Positions 13,683-63,523 of a stretch of 64,000 nucleotides of DNA are shown one piece after another. Numbering within the stretch: the first letter of the stretch is position 1; the number at the start of each line of letters is the position of its first letter. The notes beneath the pieces were generated by a model, which was not told the DNA's origin, made no database searches, and saw only the letters and a list, made by a program, of their open reading frames with translations. Position numbers and translations under genes: made by a program. Source of the stretch: Candidatus Nomurabacteria bacterium (lineage in GTDB: Bacteria; Patescibacteriota; Minisyncoccia; Phycocordibacterales; UBA9973); the NCBI GenBank assembly GCA_943350875.1, contig CALRAL010000001.1:165017-229016 (forward strand). The letters run 5' to 3'.

Positions 13683-15152
13683 ATGTCAGATATAAAGAAA
13701 ATAGCTGATTTAATAAGTAAAGATATGAGTAAAAAAGATGTAGAGCTCATCACAAAGGCCTATGTTTTTGCAGAGAAAGCTCATACTGGTCAAAAGAGAA
13801 TGAATGGAGAGCCATATTTTTTTCATGTATTTGAAACAGCAAAGATTTTACACAAATTGGGAATGGATGCTAAGACCATCTCAGCTGGGCTGCTGCACGA
13901 TGTTTTAGAAGATACCCAAACAAAAGAAGAAGAAATTAAAAAAGAATTTGGAGATGATATTTTATTTTTAATAAATGGAGTCACTAAGCTTGGCAAATTA
14001 AAGTATCGCGGACACGAACGTCATGTGGAAAGTTTAAGAAAGTTTTTTGTCGCTATCTCAAATGATTTGAGAGTAGTTATAATAAAATTCGCTGACAGGT
14101 TGCATAATTTACGAACTTTAGAGTTTGTGCGTGAAGACAAAAGAAAAAGGATAGCTGTCGAGTCTGTTGAGATATATGCTTCTCTGGCAGATAGATTAGG
14201 GATGGGTAAATTAAAAGGTCAGATAGAAGATGCAGCTTTCCCATACGCTTATCCGAAAGAATATAAGGAGATAGAAGAAATATTAAAAGACAGAATGAGT
14301 TCTTACGAAAAAGATATAAAACAAGTCGGTGAAGAATTGGAAAAAGAATTAAAGAAAAATAAAATCAAATTTATTGAAATATCTTCTAGAATAAAACATA
14401 AATATAGTCTTTGGAAAAAATTGGTTGGTCGTGATATGGATATTAATAAAATATATGACATTGTTGCCTTGTGTGTGGTGGTTAAAAATGTTGAAGATTG
14501 TTATAGAGTTTTAGGTATTGTGCATTCTATTTGGAAACCTTTACCCGGTAGGATCAAGGATTATATAGCTTTTCCAAAACCAAATGGATATAGATCACTT
14601 CACACAACTATTTTAAATGGTTTGGGTGGAGTGGCAGAAATCCAAATAAGGACAGAAGAAATGCATGCAGAAGCTGCTTATGGAATAGCTGCTCATTTTG
14701 CTTATAAAGATTATGACAGTAAAAAGGCCAAAAATGACAAAGAGAAATTCAAATGGATAGAGGAATTGAAAGATTTGAAACATATTCCCAACGACCCTAA
14801 AATATTTTTAGAAAATTTAAAAATAGATTTCTTTAATGATCGTATTTTTATTTTTACTCCCGAAGGCGATGTAGTAGACTTACCAAAGGATTCTAGTCCG
14901 ATAGATTTTGCTTATTCCATACATTCTGACATTGGTGACCATACTTCTGGAGCCAAGATAAATAATAAAATGTCTCACATTTTTTCTAAACTTAAAAACG
15001 GAGATGTGGTAGAAATTATAAATAGACAAGATGCTCATCCATCTAGTAAATGGTTGGAATATACTAAAACAAGCGTAGCAAAAAAGCATATTAAAAATTA
15101 CTTAGAGAAAAATAGCTTGCTCGCCAAACTCAAGTCTTTTGGTCACTCTTAA
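13683..15152 (+). CDS. rel: Bifunctional (p)ppGpp synthetase/hydrolase Rel/SpoT homologue (HD + synthetase + TGS; no ACT domain)
   Basis: HD motif LLHDVLEDT, synthetase motifs DIVALCVVV and GYRSLHTTI, TGS region IFIFTPEGDVVDLPKDSSPIDFAYSIH. Confidence 0.8.
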   Translation: MSDIKKIADLISKDMSKKDVELITKAYVFAEKAHTGQKRMNGEPYFFHVFETAKILHKLGMDAKTISAGLLHDVLEDTQTKEEEIKKEFGDDILFLINGVTKLGKLKYRGHERHVESLRKFFVAISNDLRVVIIKFADRLHNLRTLEFVREDKRKRIAVESVEIYASLADRLGMGKLKGQIEDAAFPYAYPKEYKEIEEILKDRMSSYEKDIKQVGEELEKELKKNKIKFIEISSRIKHKYSLWKKLVGRDMDINKIYDIVALCVVVKNVEDCYRVLGIVHSIWKPLPGRIKDYIAFPKPNGYRSLHTTILNGLGGVAEIQIRTEEMHAEAAYGIAAHFAYKDYDSKKAKNDKEKFKWIEELKDLKHIPNDPKIFLENLKIDFFNDRIFIFTPEGDVVDLPKDSSPIDFAYSIHSDIGDHTSGAKINNKMSHIFSKLKNGDVVEIINRQDAHPSSKWLEYTKTSVAKKHIKNYLEKNSLLAKLKSFGHS

Positions 15153-15180
15153 TTCAGCTAGGCAAGGCCTAGCTGAAAGA

Positions 15181-16161
15181 TTAGATACTAAAACTTGAAA
15201 TATCATATAGATTATTTTCATCTTCATTCTTTTCTTCTTTTGTTCTGTCATCCATTTCTTCAGATGGAGGTGTTGCCTCTGAAGGGGGTAAACTAGCGAC
15301 ATAATGCTCTAGCATTTGTTCTGGTTTTTTATTGATTTCTGATCTACTAATCAAATCCAAAATCATCCTAAGATCTTCATTTGAAAAGAAATCTATCTTT
15401 ATTTGTCCACCTAATTCCTTTCTATCTATATGTACTCGGGTACCGAGTTTTTCTTGAAATTCTTCTTCTAATTCAACTATTTCTGGATCAGGCATAAATT
15501 CTTTTTTACGGACTCTGTCATAGGCTATTTTTCTTGCCAATCTTTCTGCCTCGCGAACTGAAATTTTTTTATAAACAATTTCTTTAAACAATACCATCTG
15601 TTCTTCAGAATGATCTACTAACATAAGAAGCGGTCTAGTGTGACCTTCGGATATCTTACCTTCGGAAAGAGCGTTCAATATCTCATCATTTAAAACCAAG
15701 ATACGCAAAGTATTAGACACAGATTCCCTACTTTTACCCATTTTCTTGGCTATTTCAGCATGAGTGAATTTGAATTCATTTGCCAAACGAAAGAATGCTC
15801 GCGCTTTATCTACCACATTTAAATCTTCTCTTTGTAAATTCTCAATAATAGCAAGCTCAAGTTTCATCATCGAAGTATCCCCTTCACGAATTATTGCTGG
15901 CACTTGGGATACTCCTGCGAGTACTGCTGCACGTAATCTACGCTCTCCCGCTATCAATTCATATTCTGTTAAAAGTCCACCGTCTTCTTTTACTATTTCA
16001 GTGCGAGAGACTGTGAGGGGTTGAAGGACGCCATACTGCTTTATAGAGTCTGCTAAGTCTTGTAAACGCGCAGGGTCAAAGTCCCGCCTTGGTTGGAAAG
16101 GGTTTGGTTTTATTTTGTCGGTATCTATCCAGAAAATTGAGTTGGAATACAAGTTCGACAT
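15181..16161 (-). CDS. parB: ParB/Spo0J-family partition protein (no adjacent parA) with acidic C-terminal tail
   Basis: LQPLTVSR, GERRLRAAVLAG, HTH region; C-term PPSEEMDDRTKEEKNEDENN. Confidence 0.7.
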   Translation of the reverse strand: MSNLYSNSIFWIDTDKIKPNPFQPRRDFDPARLQDLADSIKQYGVLQPLTVSRTEIVKEDGGLLTEYELIAGERRLRAAVLAGVSQVPAIIREGDTSMMKLELAIIENLQREDLNVVDKARAFFRLANEFKFTHAEIAKKMGKSRESVSNTLRILVLNDEILNALSEGKISEGHTRPLLMLVDHSEEQMVLFKEIVYKKISVREAERLARKIAYDRVRKKEFMPDPEIVELEEEFQEKLGTRVHIDRKELGGQIKIDFFSNEDLRMILDLISRSEINKKPEQMLEHYVASLPPSEATPPSEEMDDRTKEEKNEDENNLYDISSFSI

Positions 16162-19347: not shown

Positions 19348-19369
19348 CTTCCGACCGAAGTCGGAAGAC
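19348..19369. repeat. Hairpin TCTTCCGAC-CGAA-GTCGGAAGA between rpmG and tRNA-Trp
   Basis: 9-bp stem with CGAA tetraloop; related TCCGAC-N4-GTCGGA palindrome at 23783. Confidence 0.4.
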
Positions 19370-21833: not shown

Positions 21834-22973
21834 TTATAGTAATTTTACAACGTCGTGATATGTAACAAAAAGCATTAGGATTATGAGAACTGCAAAACCT
21901 GCCATGTTGGCAATATTAGTCACTTTTGGATTCATCTTTGAGCCTTTGATTTTCTCAATCAAGAGGAAGAGCAATCTACCTCCATCAAGCGCAGGAAAAG
22001 GCAAAAGGTTGATTATTGCTAGATTCACGGATATTAGGCCCGCAAAAGAAAGCAAATAATTAAAGCCAAATTTATAGGCATCACCCACTACTCCCACCAT
22101 CCCTACAGGCCCTGTGACAGAAGAAAAGCTACCTTTGCCCATTATTGCCCCTTTTATGAGCCCAAAAAGGCCTGAAACAGTGTCTTTGGTCACAGACCAA
22201 TCAAGTTTAAGCCCTTCCCAAAAAGCCATGTAAAACGGCAGTTTTTCAATACCAATCTGATCCATAGATATGCCTATCATTAGCTCACCAGATTCGCTAG
22301 ATTTAGGTTTGATGTTGACTATATTTATGGGTTCTGTTATTTTTCCACGAACATAACCTATTTCTAATCCCCCGCCTGCATCAGCTATGCCTGAAGCATT
22401 GTGGGCAGGATCTTTTTTTGAGTTTGTGGCAAAAGATTTAATAGTTTCTGGACTAATAAAAGTTGTAAATTGATTTCCGCTTTTTAAGGAAACAATCTTG
22501 TCACCAGTTTTGAGACCAGCTACATCTGCAGGAGATTTGGGTAATACAGACACCACTACAGTATGTACATCTTTTAATTCATAGCCATTGGCTTCTTCAC
22601 CGACAGATGTCGGAAGCCCAGACATAAAACTAAAAGAAAAAATAATCCAAGCAAGCAAGAAATTTGCAAATACTCCAGTAAAGAGAACTATTGCTTGCTT
22701 CCAAGCTGGTTTGTTTATAAAACTTCGACTTGCGTCTGGACCAGAAATGCTTTCTTCGTCTGGAGTCTCACCGAAAATCTTTACAAAACCACCAAAAGGT
22801 AAAAGATTGAAAGTATATTCTGTTTCTCCTTTCTTAATGCCGAAAAGTTTAGGGGGGAAGCCAAAGCCGAATTCATCTACTCTGATTCCAAACTTCTTCG
22901 CGCTAAAAAAATGCCCAAATTCATGGACCAACACTAGCACCAGAAGTATGATTATAAATATAATAATAGACAT
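21834..22973 (-). CDS. rseP: RIP (site-2) zinc metalloprotease RseP
   Basis: HEFGHF in TM1, PDZ domain, second zinc-site motif LLPFPALDGG. Confidence 0.8.
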   Translation of the reverse strand: MSIIIFIIILLVLVLVHEFGHFFSAKKFGIRVDEFGFGFPPKLFGIKKGETEYTFNLLPFGGFVKIFGETPDEESISGPDASRSFINKPAWKQAIVLFTGVFANFLLAWIIFSFSFMSGLPTSVGEEANGYELKDVHTVVVSVLPKSPADVAGLKTGDKIVSLKSGNQFTTFISPETIKSFATNSKKDPAHNASGIADAGGGLEIGYVRGKITEPINIVNIKPKSSESGELMIGISMDQIGIEKLPFYMAFWEGLKLDWSVTKDTVSGLFGLIKGAIMGKGSFSSVTGPVGMVGVVGDAYKFGFNYLLSFAGLISVNLAIINLLPFPALDGGRLLFLLIEKIKGSKMNPKVTNIANMAGFAVLIILMLFVTYHDVVKLL

Positions 22974-23555: not shown

Positions 23556-24311
23556 TTATAAAATGGGGACAACTAAAGCCACTGATTCCATTAAGCTTTT
23601 TACTGAAGATCCTGGCTGACGCAAAAATTCTCTGATTTTGAAAAAATGTTTAAAATAAGTAATACCCATATGGAGGGTAGTCCTTGATATTTTATTGTGT
23701 AAAACGCATTCTAAACTGTTTAAAAAACTTATAGCTTTAGAACGAGAGGAATCTCTTTGGCTCTCTTTCCCGATCTCTATAAGGACTCCGACTTTGGTCG
23801 GAGCCTCTTCTTCAGCTAATAATTCTTTTATAAAATTAATTCTGTTCTGTAAAGACATCTTTATAAATTTTTCTGCCTCACCCTCCGCTAGGTCAGACCT
23901 AGCGGAAATAAAATGGAACCGAGATACAACAGTTTTCAAAAGTACATTTACATCAGGAATAATTATATAAAAAAGTGTATTTGGTACAGGGTCTTCAAAA
24001 AGTTTCAAAAGTGCTTGCTCTGCATCTAATGTAAAATTATTGGCACAAATTATAAATATCTTTTTATTTTCAGCCTCGCCCGTAAAGCTATGGCTTAGGG
24101 AAAATCCACTCTGATACGCCATGTCACGCACACTGAAAGCATCATCAATTTTAAAATTATCAATCACCAAATGACATACATCCGGATTATTTAAAACTTT
24201 TATTCCCAAACTTTCCACAAACTCAAAAATCTCAGGCACAACTTTCTCATGTTCGCCTTCTATTAGGTATGCGTGATGATTATTGTTATTTTCTAAATAT
24301 TCTTTTAACAT
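23556..24311 (-). CDS. holB: DNA polymerase III delta-prime-like clamp-loader subunit (no Walker A); carries in-frame palindromic insertions
   Basis: HAYLIEG..., PDVCHLVID, ...IFIICANNFTLDAEQALLKLFEDPVPNTLFYII...VVSRF aligns with HolB TLEEPP/SRC region. Confidence 0.5.
   Translation of the reverse strand: MLKEYLENNNNHHAYLIEGEHEKVVPEIFEFVESLGIKVLNNPDVCHLVIDNFKIDDAFSVRDMAYQSGFSLSHSFTGEAENKKIFIICANNFTLDAEQALLKLFEDPVPNTLFYIIIPDVNVLLKTVVSRFHFISARSDLAEGEAEKFIKMSLQNRINFIKELLAEEEAPTKVGVLIEIGKESQRDSSRSKAISFLNSLECVLHNKISRTTLHMGITYFKHFFKIREFLRQPGSSVKSLMESVALVVPIL
23783..23805. repeat. Palindrome GGACTCCGAC-TTTG-GTCGGAGCC inside the holB-like CDS
   Basis: In-frame (EEAPTKVGVL); related to the hairpin at 19348. 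Confidence 0.4.
23885..23905. repeat. REP-like palindrome CCGCTAGGTC-AGA-CCTAGCGG, a variant of the RAYT-flanking REP, inside the holB-like CDS
   Basis: Same stem as 61292, 62189, 62891 and 63503; in-frame (ISARSDLAEGE). Confidence 0.6.
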
Positions 24312-26025: not shown

Positions 26026-26733
26026 TTACGCAACGATGACAGTGAACTCTCCTCGCACTTTGTCTTTATTTTTATCAAAGTATTCTAAAAGCTCTGCAGG
26101 TGAGCCGATTTTAAATTCTTCATAGATTTTAGTAAGTTCGCGAGCGATGCAGACTTTTTTATTGGGGCAAAATTTCTGCAAAGATTCTAAAGTTTTCAAA
26201 ATACGATGTGGAGATTCATAGAAAACCATTGTTCTCTTTGATTGCTCAATTTCTTTAAATAAAGTTTCTCTACCCTTTTTATGTGGCAAAAATCCAAGAA
26301 AAGTAAATTCATGAGTTGGGAGTCCTGAAGCAGAAAGCGCAGTGATGACTGCTGAAGCTCCAGGAATAGGGATAACTTGAATGTCAAAGACCGTCTTTGA
26401 CACAGGAGGTGTCAAGGACTGTCCTTGACATTCTTTTATCTGAGCCACCAGCATCGCTCCAGGATCAGAGATGCCTGGAGTGCCTGCATCTGAGACTAAA
26501 GCTAAATCTTTCCCTTTTTTTATTAATTCAAAAATTTTACCAGTTTTAGAAAGTTTGCTTTGAGCATGATAGCTCATAGTCGGTTTATTTATATTATATT
26601 TTTCTAAAATTTTTTTAGTCTCTCGAGTATCCTCGCATAATATCAAATCGACGTTCTTTAATGTCTCAATAGCTCGAAAACTAATGTCTCCCATATTTCC
26701 TATCGGCGTCGCCACTACGTAAAATTTGGACAT
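26026..26733 (-). CDS. rsmI: 16S rRNA (cytidine1402-2'-O)-methyltransferase RsmI
   Basis: FYVVATPIGNMGDISFRAIETLKNVDLILCEDTR tetrapyrrole-methylase-like N-term. Confidence 0.85.
   Translation of the reverse strand: MSKFYVVATPIGNMGDISFRAIETLKNVDLILCEDTRETKKILEKYNINKPTMSYHAQSKLSKTGKIFELIKKGKDLALVSDAGTPGISDPGAMLVAQIKECQGQSLTPPVSKTVFDIQVIPIPGASAVITALSASGLPTHEFTFLGFLPHKKGRETLFKEIEQSKRTMVFYESPHRILKTLESLQKFCPNKKVCIARELTKIYEEFKIGSPAELLEYFDKNKDKVRGEFTVIVA
26410..26430. repeat. Palindrome TGTCAAGGACTGTCCTTGACA inside rsmI (in-frame KECQGQSLT)
   Basis: Same CAAGGACWGTCCTTG core as 29226 and 29251. Confidence 0.55.
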
Positions 26734-43406: not shown

Positions 43407-44945
43407 CTATTTTAACATATCAATCAAGATTTGTTTTGTCACAGCAGGGTTGGCAGAGCCTTTAGTCTCTTTCATGATTTGCCCCACCAGAGACATGAGA
43501 GCATTCTCTTTCCCTCCTTTGTAATCTGAAACAACCTTTTGATTTGCATCAATTATTTTCTTTGTAATTTCTTTTAATGAATTCTCATCATTTTTTTGTA
43601 ATAAATCTTTCTCTGTTGCTATTTTTTCTGGACTTTCATCTTTGACAACAATCATACCTAAAATATCCTTTGCTCCACGAGAAGAAATTTTATTTTCAGC
43701 AAACATATTTACTAATTCAGCAAAATTCTCTGCACTTGGAACCTCACTAGCCTTTGGCACCCTCTCCTTATCAAGGAGAGGGTTGGGGTGAGGTGTATTC
43801 TTAAGTATTCCTATGAGGTCAGAAGTTATAAAATTTGAAGCTACCCGAATGCTCTCCAAGGACTTACCTTTTCCCGCTTCGCTCCTCAAGGAAAGACCTT
43901 TGAGAGCGTTTACCACTTCTTCAAACCAAGCGCTGAGTACTGGATCATTGATGTATACTTCAATATCTTCATCTTTGATTCCAAAATCATTCTTATATCG
44001 TGCGCGTTTTGCATCTGGAAGCTCTGATAATTCTTTCTTCATCTTTTCTAATGGGAATGCTTCGTGGAGTTTCATTTTTGGAAGATCTGGATCAGGGAAA
44101 TACCTATAATCCGCGCTCCCTTCCTTTTTACGCTGAGAGAATGTTTTCTGTTTACTCTCATCCCATCCTCGCGTCTCTTGCACTATTTCATCTGCTTTCC
44201 CTTTTTCATAAAGTTCTGTCATCCTCTCTACTTCAAATAAAATAGCTTTCTCTACCGAACGGAAAGAATTTAAATTCTTCACTTCCACTTTTGTGCCGAG
44301 TTTACTTTTGTCTGGTGAGATTGAAATATTTGCTTCCACACGCATCTCACCTTTTTCCATATTTGCTTCTGACACACCTAAATACCACAAAACCAATTGG
44401 AATTCCTTGGCAAACTTTGAAGCACTTTTTGCAGTCGTCTCAGCATCATCAAATGTGTGAGGCTCCGTGACAAGCTCCATCAAAGGCACTCCTGCACGAT
44501 TAAAATCAATAAGAGAAAAATCACCTCGATCATGTTTGTTGTTTGCAGTATCTTCCTCTAAATGTACCCGAGTGATGTTAAAGCCCGCTAGATGCCCACC
44601 TGAAACTATCGGATATTTGTATTGAGAAATCTGATACCCTTTTGGAATATCTGGGTAAAAATAATTCTTGCGGTCAAATTCAGAAAAGTCTGCAATCTTG
44701 CCATTTATAGCGAGGCCTACTTTTATCACATTTTCAATTGCCTTTTTATTCGCCACAGGCAAAGCCCCCGGATGCGCCATGCACACCGGACAGATTAAAG
44801 TATTAGGGGCAATTTCAGGGTCGCCTGCCCCGTTGGAAGCTGAAAGCTTTCCTGCGGGGTTCTTGCAAGCACAAAACATCTTGGTGTTTGTCTTCAGCTC
44901 TGCATGCACCTCAAGCCCAATTGTCGGGTAATATCTATTCTGCAT
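43407..44945 (-). CDS. gatB: Asp/Glu-tRNA amidotransferase subunit B
   Basis: YYPTIGLEVHAELKTNTKMFC N-term, C-terminal YqeY-like domain; contains a GC-rich palindrome at 43762-43780. Confidence 0.9.
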   Translation of the reverse strand: MQNRYYPTIGLEVHAELKTNTKMFCACKNPAGKLSASNGAGDPEIAPNTLICPVCMAHPGALPVANKKAIENVIKVGLAINGKIADFSEFDRKNYFYPDIPKGYQISQYKYPIVSGGHLAGFNITRVHLEEDTANNKHDRGDFSLIDFNRAGVPLMELVTEPHTFDDAETTAKSASKFAKEFQLVLWYLGVSEANMEKGEMRVEANISISPDKSKLGTKVEVKNLNSFRSVEKAILFEVERMTELYEKGKADEIVQETRGWDESKQKTFSQRKKEGSADYRYFPDPDLPKMKLHEAFPLEKMKKELSELPDAKRARYKNDFGIKDEDIEVYINDPVLSAWFEEVVNALKGLSLRSEAGKGKSLESIRVASNFITSDLIGILKNTPHPNPLLDKERVPKASEVPSAENFAELVNMFAENKISSRGAKDILGMIVVKDESPEKIATEKDLLQKNDENSLKEITKKIIDANQKVVSDYKGGKENALMSLVGQIMKETKGSANPAVTKQILIDMLK

Positions 44946-45229
44946 AAAGTTTTTTAATTATAACACAAAAAAATAACCCGACCAACAAAAATGTGGTCGG
45001 GAGATATATTTATTAAAACTACACAAAAAGTTCACTGATCAAGCTAAACTTGTTAGTTGTATCAGATATTTTTGCTTCTTCTAACTTTAAGTAGACCAAG
45101 ACGTCTTATCGCGATAGACTGGCACGCTTGTTGCTTATCGACTACAATATTTACTTTTCACATACGCTACTCAATGAATATAGTTAGACATAATCTCACA
45201 AGAACATATCTAACTAAATATTACATCTT

Positions 45230-49707: not shown

Positions 49708-50769
49708 ATGGAAAACATTGGATTCATAATAGTCGTGGTTTTAATAGGAGTAATTGCTTATCTTTTATTTGGTAAAAAAAAGAGTGACCCGTCTGTCAAC
49801 GAGGCAAGAGAAAATAATGTAGGTTTACAACTTATACTACAGCAATTAAACGAACTTTCTAGAACTGTTGATAATAAAATCGGTGAATCCCAAAAACAAG
49901 TAAATGAGAGTCTGCGCTACCATTCCACGGAATCAAATAAAATAATCCGTGAGATTACCGAGGAGCTTGTGCGGGTGTCTGAAGGCCAGAAGCAAGTCGT
50001 GGGCTTTGCGGACCAGCTCCAAGATTTGCAAAATATTTTGAAAAATCCAAAACAGCGTGGAATCCTCGGTGAATATTTTTTGGAGACAGTTCTGAAGAAC
50101 GTCTTGCCCGATGGGAGCTATCAGATGCAATACGAATTCCCTGACAAAACTATTGTGGATGCTGTGGTATTTGTAAAAGATAAAATAATCCCGATAGACT
50201 CCAAATTCTCCCTTGAAAACTATAACAAAATGGTAGAAGAAAATAATCCTGCTGAAAGAAAGAGACTGGAAACTATTTTTATAAATGACCTTAAAAATAG
50301 GATTACCGAAACTGCTAAATATGTGAAGCCTAACGAGGGCACTACGGACTTTGCCTTTATGTTCATCCCTCATGAAGCTATATATTATGATTTACTTGTA
50401 AATAAAATCGGCGGACTGAAAGATGAAGAGAATGAGAACCTCATTCAAAGAGCAGCAGGAAAATACAAAGTCATCATCACCTCGCCTACTTCATTTTTGG
50501 CATATTTACAAACTGTGCTCCAAGGATTGAAAGCCCTCAAAATAGAAGAATCAGCTAAAGAGATAATAAAGAGAGTGGGAGAATTAGGAAAACATTTGAA
50601 ATCCTACGATGAATACCATGGCAAACTCGGGAATGCACTTTCGACTGCATTTAATCATTATAATTTCTCTAGTAAAGAATTAAAAAAAATAGATAAAGAT
50701 ATCCTGCGCATTTCCGGCGTCTCGCCCGAGATTTTGGCTCTGTCTATAGATAAACCAAACGAAGAGTAA
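49708..50769 (+). CDS. rmuC: DNA recombination protein RmuC
   Basis: N-terminal TM, coiled coil, GEYFLETVL and DFAFMFIPHEAIY motifs of the RmuC family. Confidence 0.8.
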   Translation: MENIGFIIVVVLIGVIAYLLFGKKKSDPSVNEARENNVGLQLILQQLNELSRTVDNKIGESQKQVNESLRYHSTESNKIIREITEELVRVSEGQKQVVGFADQLQDLQNILKNPKQRGILGEYFLETVLKNVLPDGSYQMQYEFPDKTIVDAVVFVKDKIIPIDSKFSLENYNKMVEENNPAERKRLETIFINDLKNRITETAKYVKPNEGTTDFAFMFIPHEAIYYDLLVNKIGGLKDEENENLIQRAAGKYKVIITSPTSFLAYLQTVLQGLKALKIEESAKEIIKRVGELGKHLKSYDEYHGKLGNALSTAFNHYNFSSKELKKIDKDILRISGVSPEILALSIDKPNEE

Positions 50770-50770
50770 T

Positions 50771-50793
50771 CTGCAGAAGCCTTGCTTCTGCAG
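50771..50793 (+). terminator. Terminator hairpin CTGCAGAAGC-CTTG-CTTCTGCAG after rmuC
   Basis: 10-bp perfect stem; weak T-run. Confidence 0.45.
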
Positions 50794-50797
50794 ATAG

Positions 50798-61165: not shown

Positions 61166-61263
61166 AAATTTTCTTTATTTCCAAATTTCCCACTTCTTCC
61201 CACCTGATATACATTATAAACCACATAAGAAAATACCACCAAGCCCTAACTGTGGATAACTAA

Positions 61264-61287: not shown

Positions 61288-61291
61288 AGTT

Positions 61292-61312
61292 CCGCTAGGT
61301 CTTTCCTAGCGG
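61292..61312. repeat. REP CCGCTAGGTCTTTCCTAGCGG
   Basis: Perfect 8-bp stem palindrome; identical copies at 62189 and 63503, inverted copy at 62891. Confidence 0.8.
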
Positions 61313-61474
61313 AAAATATAATTTTTATTTAACTTTTTACTCTGGCAAAGCTGGAGGAACTAATCCTTGATCATCCCCATTCTTTGCTGAGTTTCCTTTT
61401 TGTATTAAGAAGTAACCTACAATTAACAAAGTGACTACTATAACGATATAAATAATTTTTTTCATAAAAATAAA

Positions 61475-62188: not shown

Positions 62189-62210
62189 CCCGCTAGGTCT
62201 TTCCTAGCGG
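62189..62210. repeat. REP CCCGCTAGGTCTTTCCTAGCGG, immediately 3' of the RAYT gene
   Basis: Identical to 61292 and 63503. Confidence 0.8.
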
Positions 62211-62890: not shown

Positions 62891-62911
62891 CCGCTAGGAA
62901 AGACCTAGCGG
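62891..62911. repeat. REP (inverted copy) CCGCTAGGAAAGACCTAGCGG, immediately 5' of the RAYT gene
   Basis: Reverse-complement loop (AAAGA vs TCTTT) relative to the other copies. Confidence 0.8.
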
Positions 62912-62996
62912 TAGAAATACCACCAAGCCCTAGCTGTGGATAACTTTGCTCGGTTAATTACTATGGTTTTAAATAAGATTTTGGTATATTTACACT

Positions 62997-63502: not shown

Positions 63503-63523
63503 CCGCTAGGTCTTTCCTAGCGG
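63503..63523. repeat. REP CCGCTAGGTCTTTCCTAGCGG overlapping the lysS stop codon
   Basis: Identical to 61292. Confidence 0.8.

Follow-up and report, generated by a model that had tools for sequence, protein, structure and literature searches.

The classical REP/RAYT (REPIN) systems, in which repetitive extragenic palindromes (REPs) accompany REP-associated tyrosine transposases (RAYTs), are reportedly those of Escherichia, Pseudomonas and Stenotrophomonas, as is said of the work of Nunvar in 2010, Bertels and Rainey in 2011 and Ton-Hoang in 2012. Here, we describe a 64,000-nucleotide stretch of a Candidatus Nomurabacteria contig (hereafter, the window), in which a REP with the stems of the local RAYT-flanking copies lies in frame within the putative gene of a delta-prime-like clamp-loader subunit. 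This copy is a genuine REP of the RAYT family, and we consider it probable that it is a long-standing resident of a tolerant linker, neither recently inserted nor kept for clamp-loader function. In comparison with the classical systems (see also PMC3184786 and PMC5581495), the window holds a similar single-copy Y1 (HUH) transposase, inverted flanking copies of a dispersed hairpin and copies between convergent genes. In contrast, copy number is low (5-6 in 73 kb), no REPIN doublets occur in the window, one third of the copies among the metagenome matches listed are intragenic and the RAYT stays under the cut-off of the NCBIfam model REP_Tyr_transpos.

The closest precedent is given by the intragenic GTAG/CGTC REPs (Di Nocera, De Gregorio and Rocco 2013, BMC Genomics 14:522; PMC3733652), which lie whole within open reading frames (ORFs), in frame and in many cases in genes of DNA replication and repair, and which were proposed to be neutral in flexible linkers and loops; an initial annotation of the window, which held a REP in a replication gene to be unusual, therefore overstated the case. 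The element described here resembles the GTAG/CGTC REPs as a short GC-rich in-frame hairpin in a linker and in having RAYT genes flanked by REPs (‘REPtrons’), but it differs in its host, a member of the Patescibacteria (Candidate Phyla Radiation, CPR; Nomurabacteria-like, 35% GC), and in bearing neither a GTAG nor a CGTC tag. It is moreover a single unit of 21-25 nt with one stop-free frame that yields one recurrent peptide, SARxxLAE, and it keeps the same register and a constant length across ∼50%-identical orthologues while its stems co-vary. An older precedent, the Rickettsia palindromic elements (RPEs), have a length on the order of 100-150 bp, whereas the element here encodes 8 residues and is tied to a RAYT. 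RPEs (Ogata et al. 2000, as cited in PMC3733652 and PMC3184786) likewise are in-frame palindromic repeats in the surface or linker regions of still-functional housekeeping genes of reduced genomes, but they are reportedly present in some orthologues and missing from others, a pattern that does not hold at the site of the REP described here (site 1). An in-gene REP is thus of a kind already known in other bacteria, and what sets the present one apart is the Patescibacteria lineage, the absence of a tag, the tiny unit, the one recurrent peptide and the fixed register. A search of the literature on Patescibacteria/CPR brought up no report of REPs or in-frame palindromic elements.

A REP in frame within a delta-prime-like gene

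Residues 2-136 of the host protein match the Pfam family PF13177 (DNA_pol3_delta2) with 43.8 bits against a cut-off of 27. In the protein, the SRC motif is replaced by SRF and a Walker A motif is lacking, and a profile of the orthologue alignment gave weak matches in the PDB to E. coli gamma/tau and delta-prime, in alignments that end at the REP site. Because the protein stays below the cut-off of every NCBIfam delta-prime (holB equivalog) model (best 56 bits versus 140) and has only 251 amino acids, as compared with ∼330 in a full three-domain delta-prime, we refer to the gene as delta-prime-like; judged by its sequence, it appears to encode an AAA+ clamp-loader module.

As the initial annotation had recognized, a variant of the RAYT-flanking REP lies within this ORF without breaking its frame. 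Positions 23885-23905 read CCGCTAGGTCAGACCTAGCGG, i.e. CCGCTAGGT-CAG-ACCTAGCGG (21 bases), and one extra base per side (23884-23906) gives 10-bp arms, TCCGCTAGGT/ACCTAGCGGA, around a 3-nt loop. The element makes up codons 136-143 (TCC GCT AGG TCT GAC CTA GCG GAG), which are translated as SARSDLAE within the correctly assigned peptide ISARSDLAEGE. Its 8+8 stems, CCGCTAGG/CCTAGCGG, are identical to those at 61292, 62190, 62891 and 63503, making five copies in the window versus 0.00 expected from 100 shuffles, and the half-site CCTAGCGG is absent elsewhere in the window. As single-stranded DNA, the in-gene copy folds with -11.0 kcal/mol (z = -5.9), and is as stable as the intergenic copies, which range from -9.6 to -11.4 kcal/mol, and the mRNA around the in-gene copy folds with -20.8 kcal/mol (z = -2.3). 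Given the peptide and the codon usage of the window, whose GC content is 35%, the probability of the in-gene stems is P = 1.3e-5.

An AlphaFold model based on the orthologue alignment (mean predicted local distance difference test score, pLDDT, 70.6; ∼70 around the REP peptide) shows a strand at 133-136, a loop at 137-141 and a helix at 142-151. The peptide would therefore begin where the last core strand ends, run through the connecting loop and reach into the first turn of the lid helix; it is predicted to lie on a surface linker, in line with the REP-encoded peptide loops of which the initial annotation spoke. The Pfam AAA+ match also stops at residue 136, where the REP peptide starts.

The RAYT gene and the REP family

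The RAYT ORF matches Pfam Y1_Tnp (PF01797) with 37.3 bits (cut-off 23) and contains the motifs NHFHILI and YIHLNPV in its translation, whereas its best and only NCBIfam match, REP_Tyr_transpos (NF047646), reaches 45.8 bits and falls short of the cut-off of 80. The copies at 62190 and 62891, inverted around this gene, form the classical ‘REPtron’ arrangement, and the loop of all four intergenic copies is TCTTT or its complement AAAGA. The window REP is thus a short GC-rich hairpin that is repeated in the genome and flanks a RAYT gene in inverted orientation, as is characteristic of REPs. It departs from the described types in three respects: the GTAG/CGTC tag is lacking, the flanks being (C/T)T...A(G/A) with CGGTAG following copy 62891 only; every copy in the window is a single unit and not a REPIN doublet; and the in-gene copy occupies codons of a conserved gene, the other four having the extragenic location expected of REPs. 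A scan of the window for degenerate REPs with up to 2 mismatches gave nothing beyond six perfect copies, and no copies were found in the further 9 kb of the contig past the window end. The sixth is a related REP-type hairpin that fills the 28-nt gap between convergent RelA/SpoT-like (13683-15152) and ParB (15181-16161) genes, and it is identical (25/25) to site 1 within the delta-prime-like gene of another genome (L012).

The block REP-orf42-orf215-REP-RAYT-REP, which lies upstream of mraZ, has a 31-nt direct repeat on either side (61231-61261 and 62915-62945; 97% identical), with the sequence AAATACCACCAAGCCCTA[A/G]CTGTGGATAACT. The minus strand of the repeat contains TTATCCACA, which we take to match the DnaA-box consensus. 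The repeat may be a trace of the acquisition of the REPtron block or a duplicated mraZ upstream region.

Beyond this genome, a metagenome scan with the query CCGCTAGG-N5-CCTAGCGG matched at least 120 contigs. Low-GC contigs held at least 76 copies when the four main loop types were counted, and among the matches listed these loops are CAAGA/TCTTG, AAAGA/TCTTT, CAAGG/CCTTG and AAAGT/ACTTT, with flanks that are typically CT...AG and with CAAGA as the commonest. RAYT homologues of 62-78% identity with REPs alongside occur in at least seven contigs, two more, L107 and L164, hold a fragmented copy, and paired inverted REPs were seen in L090, L125, L130, L187, L107 and L164 (among the matches listed). 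The closest RAYT homologues listed (71-78%: L130, L148 and L187) share the TCTTT/AAAGA loop of the window, four more distant ones (62-67%: L090, L125, L095 and L107) have TCTTG/CAAGA, and the homologue in L196 (64%) has another loop; direct REP pairs ∼46 nt apart are found in L128 and L130. The REP family is RAYT-linked and widespread in low-GC metagenome contigs. An identical 25-mer, including the TCTGA loop of the in-gene copy, is present in an ORF that reads as ArgRS in L197, a contig without overlap with the window.

Constant length at site 1 and palindromes at the same codons

A database search with the host protein returned more than 500 relatives, the nearest of which, besides an identical sequence, are ∼55% identical and come from sources named Nomurabacteria, Paceibacterota or Yanofskybacteria. 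We aligned 36 close orthologues and 74 orthologous genes with DNA from species-representative genomes, and no indel at the REP position was found in either set. The initial annotation had predicted an indel of 8-10 residues; instead, homologous residues are present throughout, with the consensus V-S-R-F-Y-x-I-S-x-R-x-D-L-x-E-E and with ISARQDLAEE in many orthologues, and the window protein is 2 residues shorter than the consensus. In distant family members (30-45% identity), the linker from the strand after SR[FLC] to the next helix has a similar length of 8-12 residues and is mostly without a REP-type peptide. The description of the element as a true REP, in frame in a holB-like gene, is upheld by these comparisons, whereas its description as an insertion is not. 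At site 1, the presence or absence between orthologues that marks RPE-like elements is not observed. It is seen, however, with the REP family in RsmI and likewise at residues 71-83 and holB sites 2 and 3, where it concerns other palindrome families.

In 12 of the 75 genes, the window gene included, the same codon register holds a perfect palindrome of 7 bp or more, and a few more genes have imperfect ones (examples in Table 1). At the same codons L150 carries the exact TCTTT REP, read as SARSFLAE, in a protein that is 52% identical to that of the window. The remaining orthologues include AT-rich, non-palindromic versions of equal length, e.g. STKQDLTE, which look like transition-decayed copies. 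When a 9-pair helix was evaluated in 56 gap-free orthologues, 60.1% of the cells were paired versus 49.3 +/- 1.5 after shuffling (0/500 reach this value), and the covariation score was 0.290 versus 0.152, with slid controls at 0.08-0.19. Gene-wide, 46 perfect hairpins of at least 7 bp were counted in 74 genes versus 4.0 +/- 1.8 after synonymous resampling, and all of them fall into three linker hot spots at residues ∼139-143 (site 1), ∼172-182 (site 2) and ∼207-216 (site 3). The 5-nt loop of the in-gene copy, TCTGA, stands between the TCTTT of the REPtron (as in L150) and the CAAGA common in orthologues, which fits an exchange with the REP pool and subsequent selection to retain the conserved Asp.

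A single open frame and other host genes

Two of the three REP frames contain TAG (CGC-TAG and CC-TAG), and the same holds on the other strand by palindromic symmetry, so that the sole open frame is GCT-AGG-NNN-NNC-CTA-GCG. Surviving intragenic copies must therefore read S-A-R-x-x-L-A-E. In line with this frame, ORFs of at least 200 aa hold 25 of the 76 low-GC copies, of which 24 read SAR..LA and one reads TAR..LA (among the matches listed). The hosts, named by reading the ORF translations rather than by a Pfam scan, would include UvrD/PcrA, a PIF1/RecD-like helicase, SecA, ArgRS, LeuRS, MurB and TruB, and putative MurD, LigA and RecJ each carry the element at the same site in two contigs. In 22 of the 25 intragenic copies, the orientation is such that the first loop codon specifies Q or K (QD, KV, QG, KD) instead of giving SC, PC or SF, a bias that could reflect peptide selection or strand-biased insertion. 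In the ORFs of L104 and L089 that read as LeuRS and UvrD, extra GC-rich-looking peptides were noted, e.g. TSPRPSPKER (twice in LeuRS) and FLSRGSRPVLREGRSEENF, which suggests many further in-frame palindromic elements in the housekeeping proteins of CPR lineages.

RsmI also hosts the REP, in L168, L158 and, among genome loci, L029. From DPGAMLVSKIKE to VIPIPG, the protein spans 33-35 residues in most of 72 orthologues. L029 reads LSARKDLAEG, encoded by CTCCGCTAGG-AAAGA-CCTAGCGGAG, which is the REP of the window including its loop, and L168 reads NSARQDLAEK; both exceed the base length by 5 to 7 residues. Many other orthologues have inserts of other palindrome types, with gains of up to 29 residues, and L004 and L010 carry ARQDLA with unchanged length. 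This part of RsmI is a hypervariable in-frame insertion hot spot, in which orthologues have a REP-type insert, another palindrome-type insert or none. A REP-type palindrome can therefore occupy a linker and either add to its length or leave it as it was. The RsmI of the window itself (26026-26733, minus strand) has ∼11 extra residues, ECQGQSLTPPVSKTVFDIQ, between DPGAMLVAQIKE and VIPIPG.

Other in-frame palindrome families

A further palindrome of the host gene, which the initial annotation had correctly located at 23783-23805 but had termed unrelated, is a member of another in-frame family of palindromes, CCGAC..GTCGG, with the peptide P-T-x-V-G. Its sequence, GGACTCCGAC-TTTG-GTCGGAGCC, forms 7 perfect pairs with a bulged extension, and site 2 (residues 169-186) is predicted to be disordered in the AlphaFold model. 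The pattern CCGAC-N3-8-GTCGG occurs three times in the window (19351, 22600 and 23788) versus 0.04 expected, and one member is translated within GLPTSVGEE of ORF 21834-22973, which from its sequence reads as an RseP-type protease. In the orthologues, the family appears as VPTEVG and IPTGVGK, often as dimers, and is patchy at site 2; it also occupies site 1 in L002, L025, L026 and L036. Residues 71-83 form another patchy segment, which varies between ∼10 and 16 aa across genes and measures 13 aa in the window. An insert is present here in 8 of 75 genes, and five of the eight read F[SA]LGHSxTGEA, from an imperfect GC-rich palindrome, CCCTCGGCC...GGGCGAGG, of which the window copy is degraded.

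At site 3, the families seen (e.g. L056:10574-10596, L031 and L069) include GTGTCAAGG..CCTTGACAC, read as VSRxxLDT, TCCATCC..GGATGGA, read as HPxDG, and long nested palindromes on CACAGGG..CCCTGTG with arms of up to 22 bp; in the window, site 3 (SRTTLHM) lacks perfect hairpins of 7 bp or more. In the GatB gene (43410-44957, minus strand), an 11-bp-stem palindrome, ACCCTCTCCTT-ATC-AAGGAGAGGGT, lies in frame at 43759-43783 (NPLLDKERV) between the GatB_N and GatB_Yqey domains. Its stems recur in frame in the delta-prime-like genes of L077 (PSPYQGEG) and L079 (SPLLGKGEG), and at the peptide level a similar stretch, SPYQGEG, is seen in the RsmI of L016. Finally, a perfect inverted repeat with 22-bp arms, GTTGCAGAAGCCTTGCTTTTGC-TAGTTT-GCAAAAGCAAGGCTTCTGCAAC, is found on the same contig past the window end (L201:3751-3800) and resembles a 12-bp-arm palindrome, ATCTGCAGAAGC-CTT-GCTTCTGCAGAT, at 50769-50795 of the window.

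Table 1. Palindromic elements and associated genes of the window, and site-1 palindromes of delta-prime-like orthologues
Feature	Position	Strand	Sequence, peptide or basis
Predicted delta-prime-like (HolB-like) AAA+ clamp-loader subunit, 251 aa	23556-24311	-	Pfam PF13177
In-frame REP copy	23884-23906	-	Coding strand TCCGCTAGGT-CTG-ACCTAGCGGA = S136-A-R-S-D-L-A-E143
Second in-frame palindrome, CCGAC-N4-GTCGG family	23783-23805	-	A-P-T-K-V-G-V, predicted disordered acidic linker, site 2
Patchy in-frame segment, decayed copy	24063-24101	-	SLSHSFTGEAE, residues 71-83; orthologue alignment
CCGAC..GTCGG member within 379-aa ORF 21834-22973	22600-22613	-	Coding strand P-T-S-V-G
CCGAC..GTCGG member, intergenic, beside tRNA-Trp	19351-19364	.	
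Related REP-type hairpin, gap between convergent genes	15153-15177	.	TTCAGCTAGGC-AAG-GCCTAGCTGAA
Intergenic REP copy	61290-61314 (core from 61292)	+	TTCCGCTAGG-TCTTT-CCTAGCGGAA; stem match, fold
REP copy, 5 nt past RAYT gene 3′ end	62190-62210	+	Loop TCTTT
RAYT-like Y1 (HUH) tyrosine transposase, 218 aa	62215-62871	-	PF01797
REP copy, 20 nt upstream of RAYT start, inverted versus 62190	62891-62911	-	Loop AAAGA on + strand
Intergenic REP copy between 159-aa ORF and lysyl-tRNA synthetase-like gene end	63503-63523	+	
Site 1 of L056			CCGCTAGG-CAAGA-CCTAGCGG; stems of the window
Site 1 of L045			CCGCTAGG-TCTTG-CCTAGTGG
Site 1 of L004			CTCCGCAAGGC-AAG-GCCTTGCGGAG; synonymous compensatory change in Ala and Leu codons, GCA..CTT versus GCT..CTA
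Site 1 of L010			TTCTACTAGG-CAAGA-CCTAGTAGAA; STRQDLVE
Site 1 of L012			TTCAGCTAGGC-AAG-GCCTAGCTGAA
Site 1 of L017			TTTCCCCTAA-...-TTAGGGGAAA; SPKPGLGE
Site 1 of L026 and L036			CCCCGACAC-CTG-GTGTCGGGG; SPTPGVGV
Site 1 of L078			TTCCCCTATCC-CGG-GGATAGGGGAA; SPIPGIGE

Origin and maintenance of the in-gene copy

Under the reading that we favour, an old REP residing in a tolerant linker, a REP unit with stems of 8-10 bp, (CT)CCGCTAGG / CCTAGCGG(AG), and a 5-nt loop would survive within a gene by virtue of its sole open frame, which yields a short hydrophilic peptide that linkers can tolerate. REP-type palindromes would have occupied this codon register of the linker already before the Nomurabacteria-like lineages split. 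Mutation pressure towards AT would have eroded the palindrome to STKQDLTE-like peptides in most of these lineages, and in a minority the palindrome would have stayed perfect, with stems that differ between lineages yet are complementary, as if the hairpin had been repeatedly re-perfected or overwritten. Such renewal could come about by template switching at the quasi-palindrome, by short-patch conversion with other REP copies as donors or by RAYT action or replacement. The tolerance of REP-encoded peptides that the initial annotation had proposed is evident from the same REP peptide in many proteins, and for the host protein the element may well be neutral. As to the source of renewal, homogenization of the in-gene palindrome to the REP family of its own genome was considered as a general rule and rejected on account of the variants that coexist in L001, L004 and the window.

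Several observations weigh against the favoured reading. The same coexisting variants (15153 versus 23885 in the window; site 1 versus RsmI in L001 and L004) are among them, as is the count of 5 copies and 1 related copy in ∼73 kb, fewer than would be expected of a REP family that proliferates. No orthologue without the segment was found among those aligned, so that the insertion event would have to be deduced rather than observed, and the REP peptide stands in shifted registers in P0127 (KDSARQDLAVE) and P0124 (KTSSARQGLDENTKE), an indication that at least some of the events were independent. A neighbour-joining tree of the 75 orthologues with the hot spots masked (∼50% identity) is star-like and does not tell a single ancient event from several. 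The compensatory changes and the covariation, finally, fit selection on the hairpin equally well.

The main competing explanation is that a functional nucleic-acid structure is selected in the delta-prime-like gene and that its likeness to REPs is secondary. In the mRNA, such a stem could make ribosomes pause at the AAA+ core/lid boundary or modulate mRNA decay, and in the DNA it could serve as a site for the RAYT or another protein. Pairing that is maintained in the 56 orthologues while both sides change, the synonymous compensation in L004 and the low folding energy of the local mRNA all speak for it, as do the hairpins of this gene family, which stand only at three domain-boundary or linker positions and are ∼11x commoner than after synonymous resampling. 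Yet only 12/75 genes have a perfect site-1 hairpin of at least 7 bp, and the gene evidently works without one; identical 21-25-mers recur next to RAYT genes, between genes and within many genes unrelated to this one; and restriction to linkers is also expected from purifying selection against disruptive insertions. We judge such a selected structure to be unlikely. A recent RAYT-mediated insertion that added ∼8 residues, the model of the initial annotation, is less likely still and already largely fails. The stems are indeed identical to those of the resident REPtron copies, the first three loop bases are the TCT of the REP loop and not the CAA of most orthologues, and REP-type peptides in RsmI accompany gains of 5 to 29 residues; however, the constant length against the 36 and 74 orthologues leaves a recent residue-adding insertion unsupported, the window protein being, if anything, shorter than the consensus. 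The linkers of distant homologues are of similar size as well, and the same register is filled by REP-type palindromes in the ∼50%-identical L056, L045, L150, L007 and L012.

The direction could also be reversed, the REP family having been born from this or a similar coding hairpin that was captured by a RAYT and spread to intergenic sites. The SAR(Q)DLAE palindrome is widespread and old at site 1, and the loop that is commonest among the metagenome matches listed, CAAGA, is the site-1 loop in most orthologues. Classical inverted REPs, however, flank RAYT genes in many contigs, as they do in other phyla, and several unrelated palindrome families act likewise in the same linkers, which points to a general invasion of linkers and not to one source gene; we regard this origin as very improbable. 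A chance palindrome arising from the amino-acid sequence can be dismissed. S-A-R-x-D-L-A-E is conserved and its codons are able to be palindromic, but the low probability of the stems given the peptide and codon usage, the lack of any match in the shuffles and the identical 25-mers in other genes and genomes refute it. Of the two observations by which the initial annotation would have been overturned, the absence of an indel was therefore made, whereas the palindrome, with stems shared by the REPtron, did not prove coincidental.

In a broader reading, the linker hairpins would be more than tolerated debris, and in these reduced genomes a set of short palindromes with a single open frame each (SARxxLAE, PTxVG, SRxxLD and others) would be actively kept or renewed at fixed registers of housekeeping genes. 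We put this forward only tentatively, as a possibility with the odds against it. If true, amino-acid pairs would co-vary as reverse-complement codons (A-R/L-A, T-R/L-V, P-K/L-G and P-T/V-G), and behind them would stand either selection at domain boundaries for a structure in mRNA or DNA or a length-neutral rewriting of protein linkers driven by RAYT or conversion.

Implications

Knowledge of clamp loaders is unchanged by the finding; its bearing is on the mobile palindromes and their hosts. REP/RAYT systems seem to be at work in Patescibacteria (CPR), where REP hairpins are written into the linkers of core proteins, among them the clamp loader, RsmI and the products of ORFs that read as LigA, RecJ, UvrD, SecA and tRNA synthetases. 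For annotators and protein modellers, this implies that recurrent peptides of the SARQDLAE and PTxVG types mirror DNA palindromes and not protein function. With the same codons occupied in many lineages, the site offers a tractable system in which intragenic hairpins may be studied as neutral passengers, as objects of DNA-level renewal or as selected structures.

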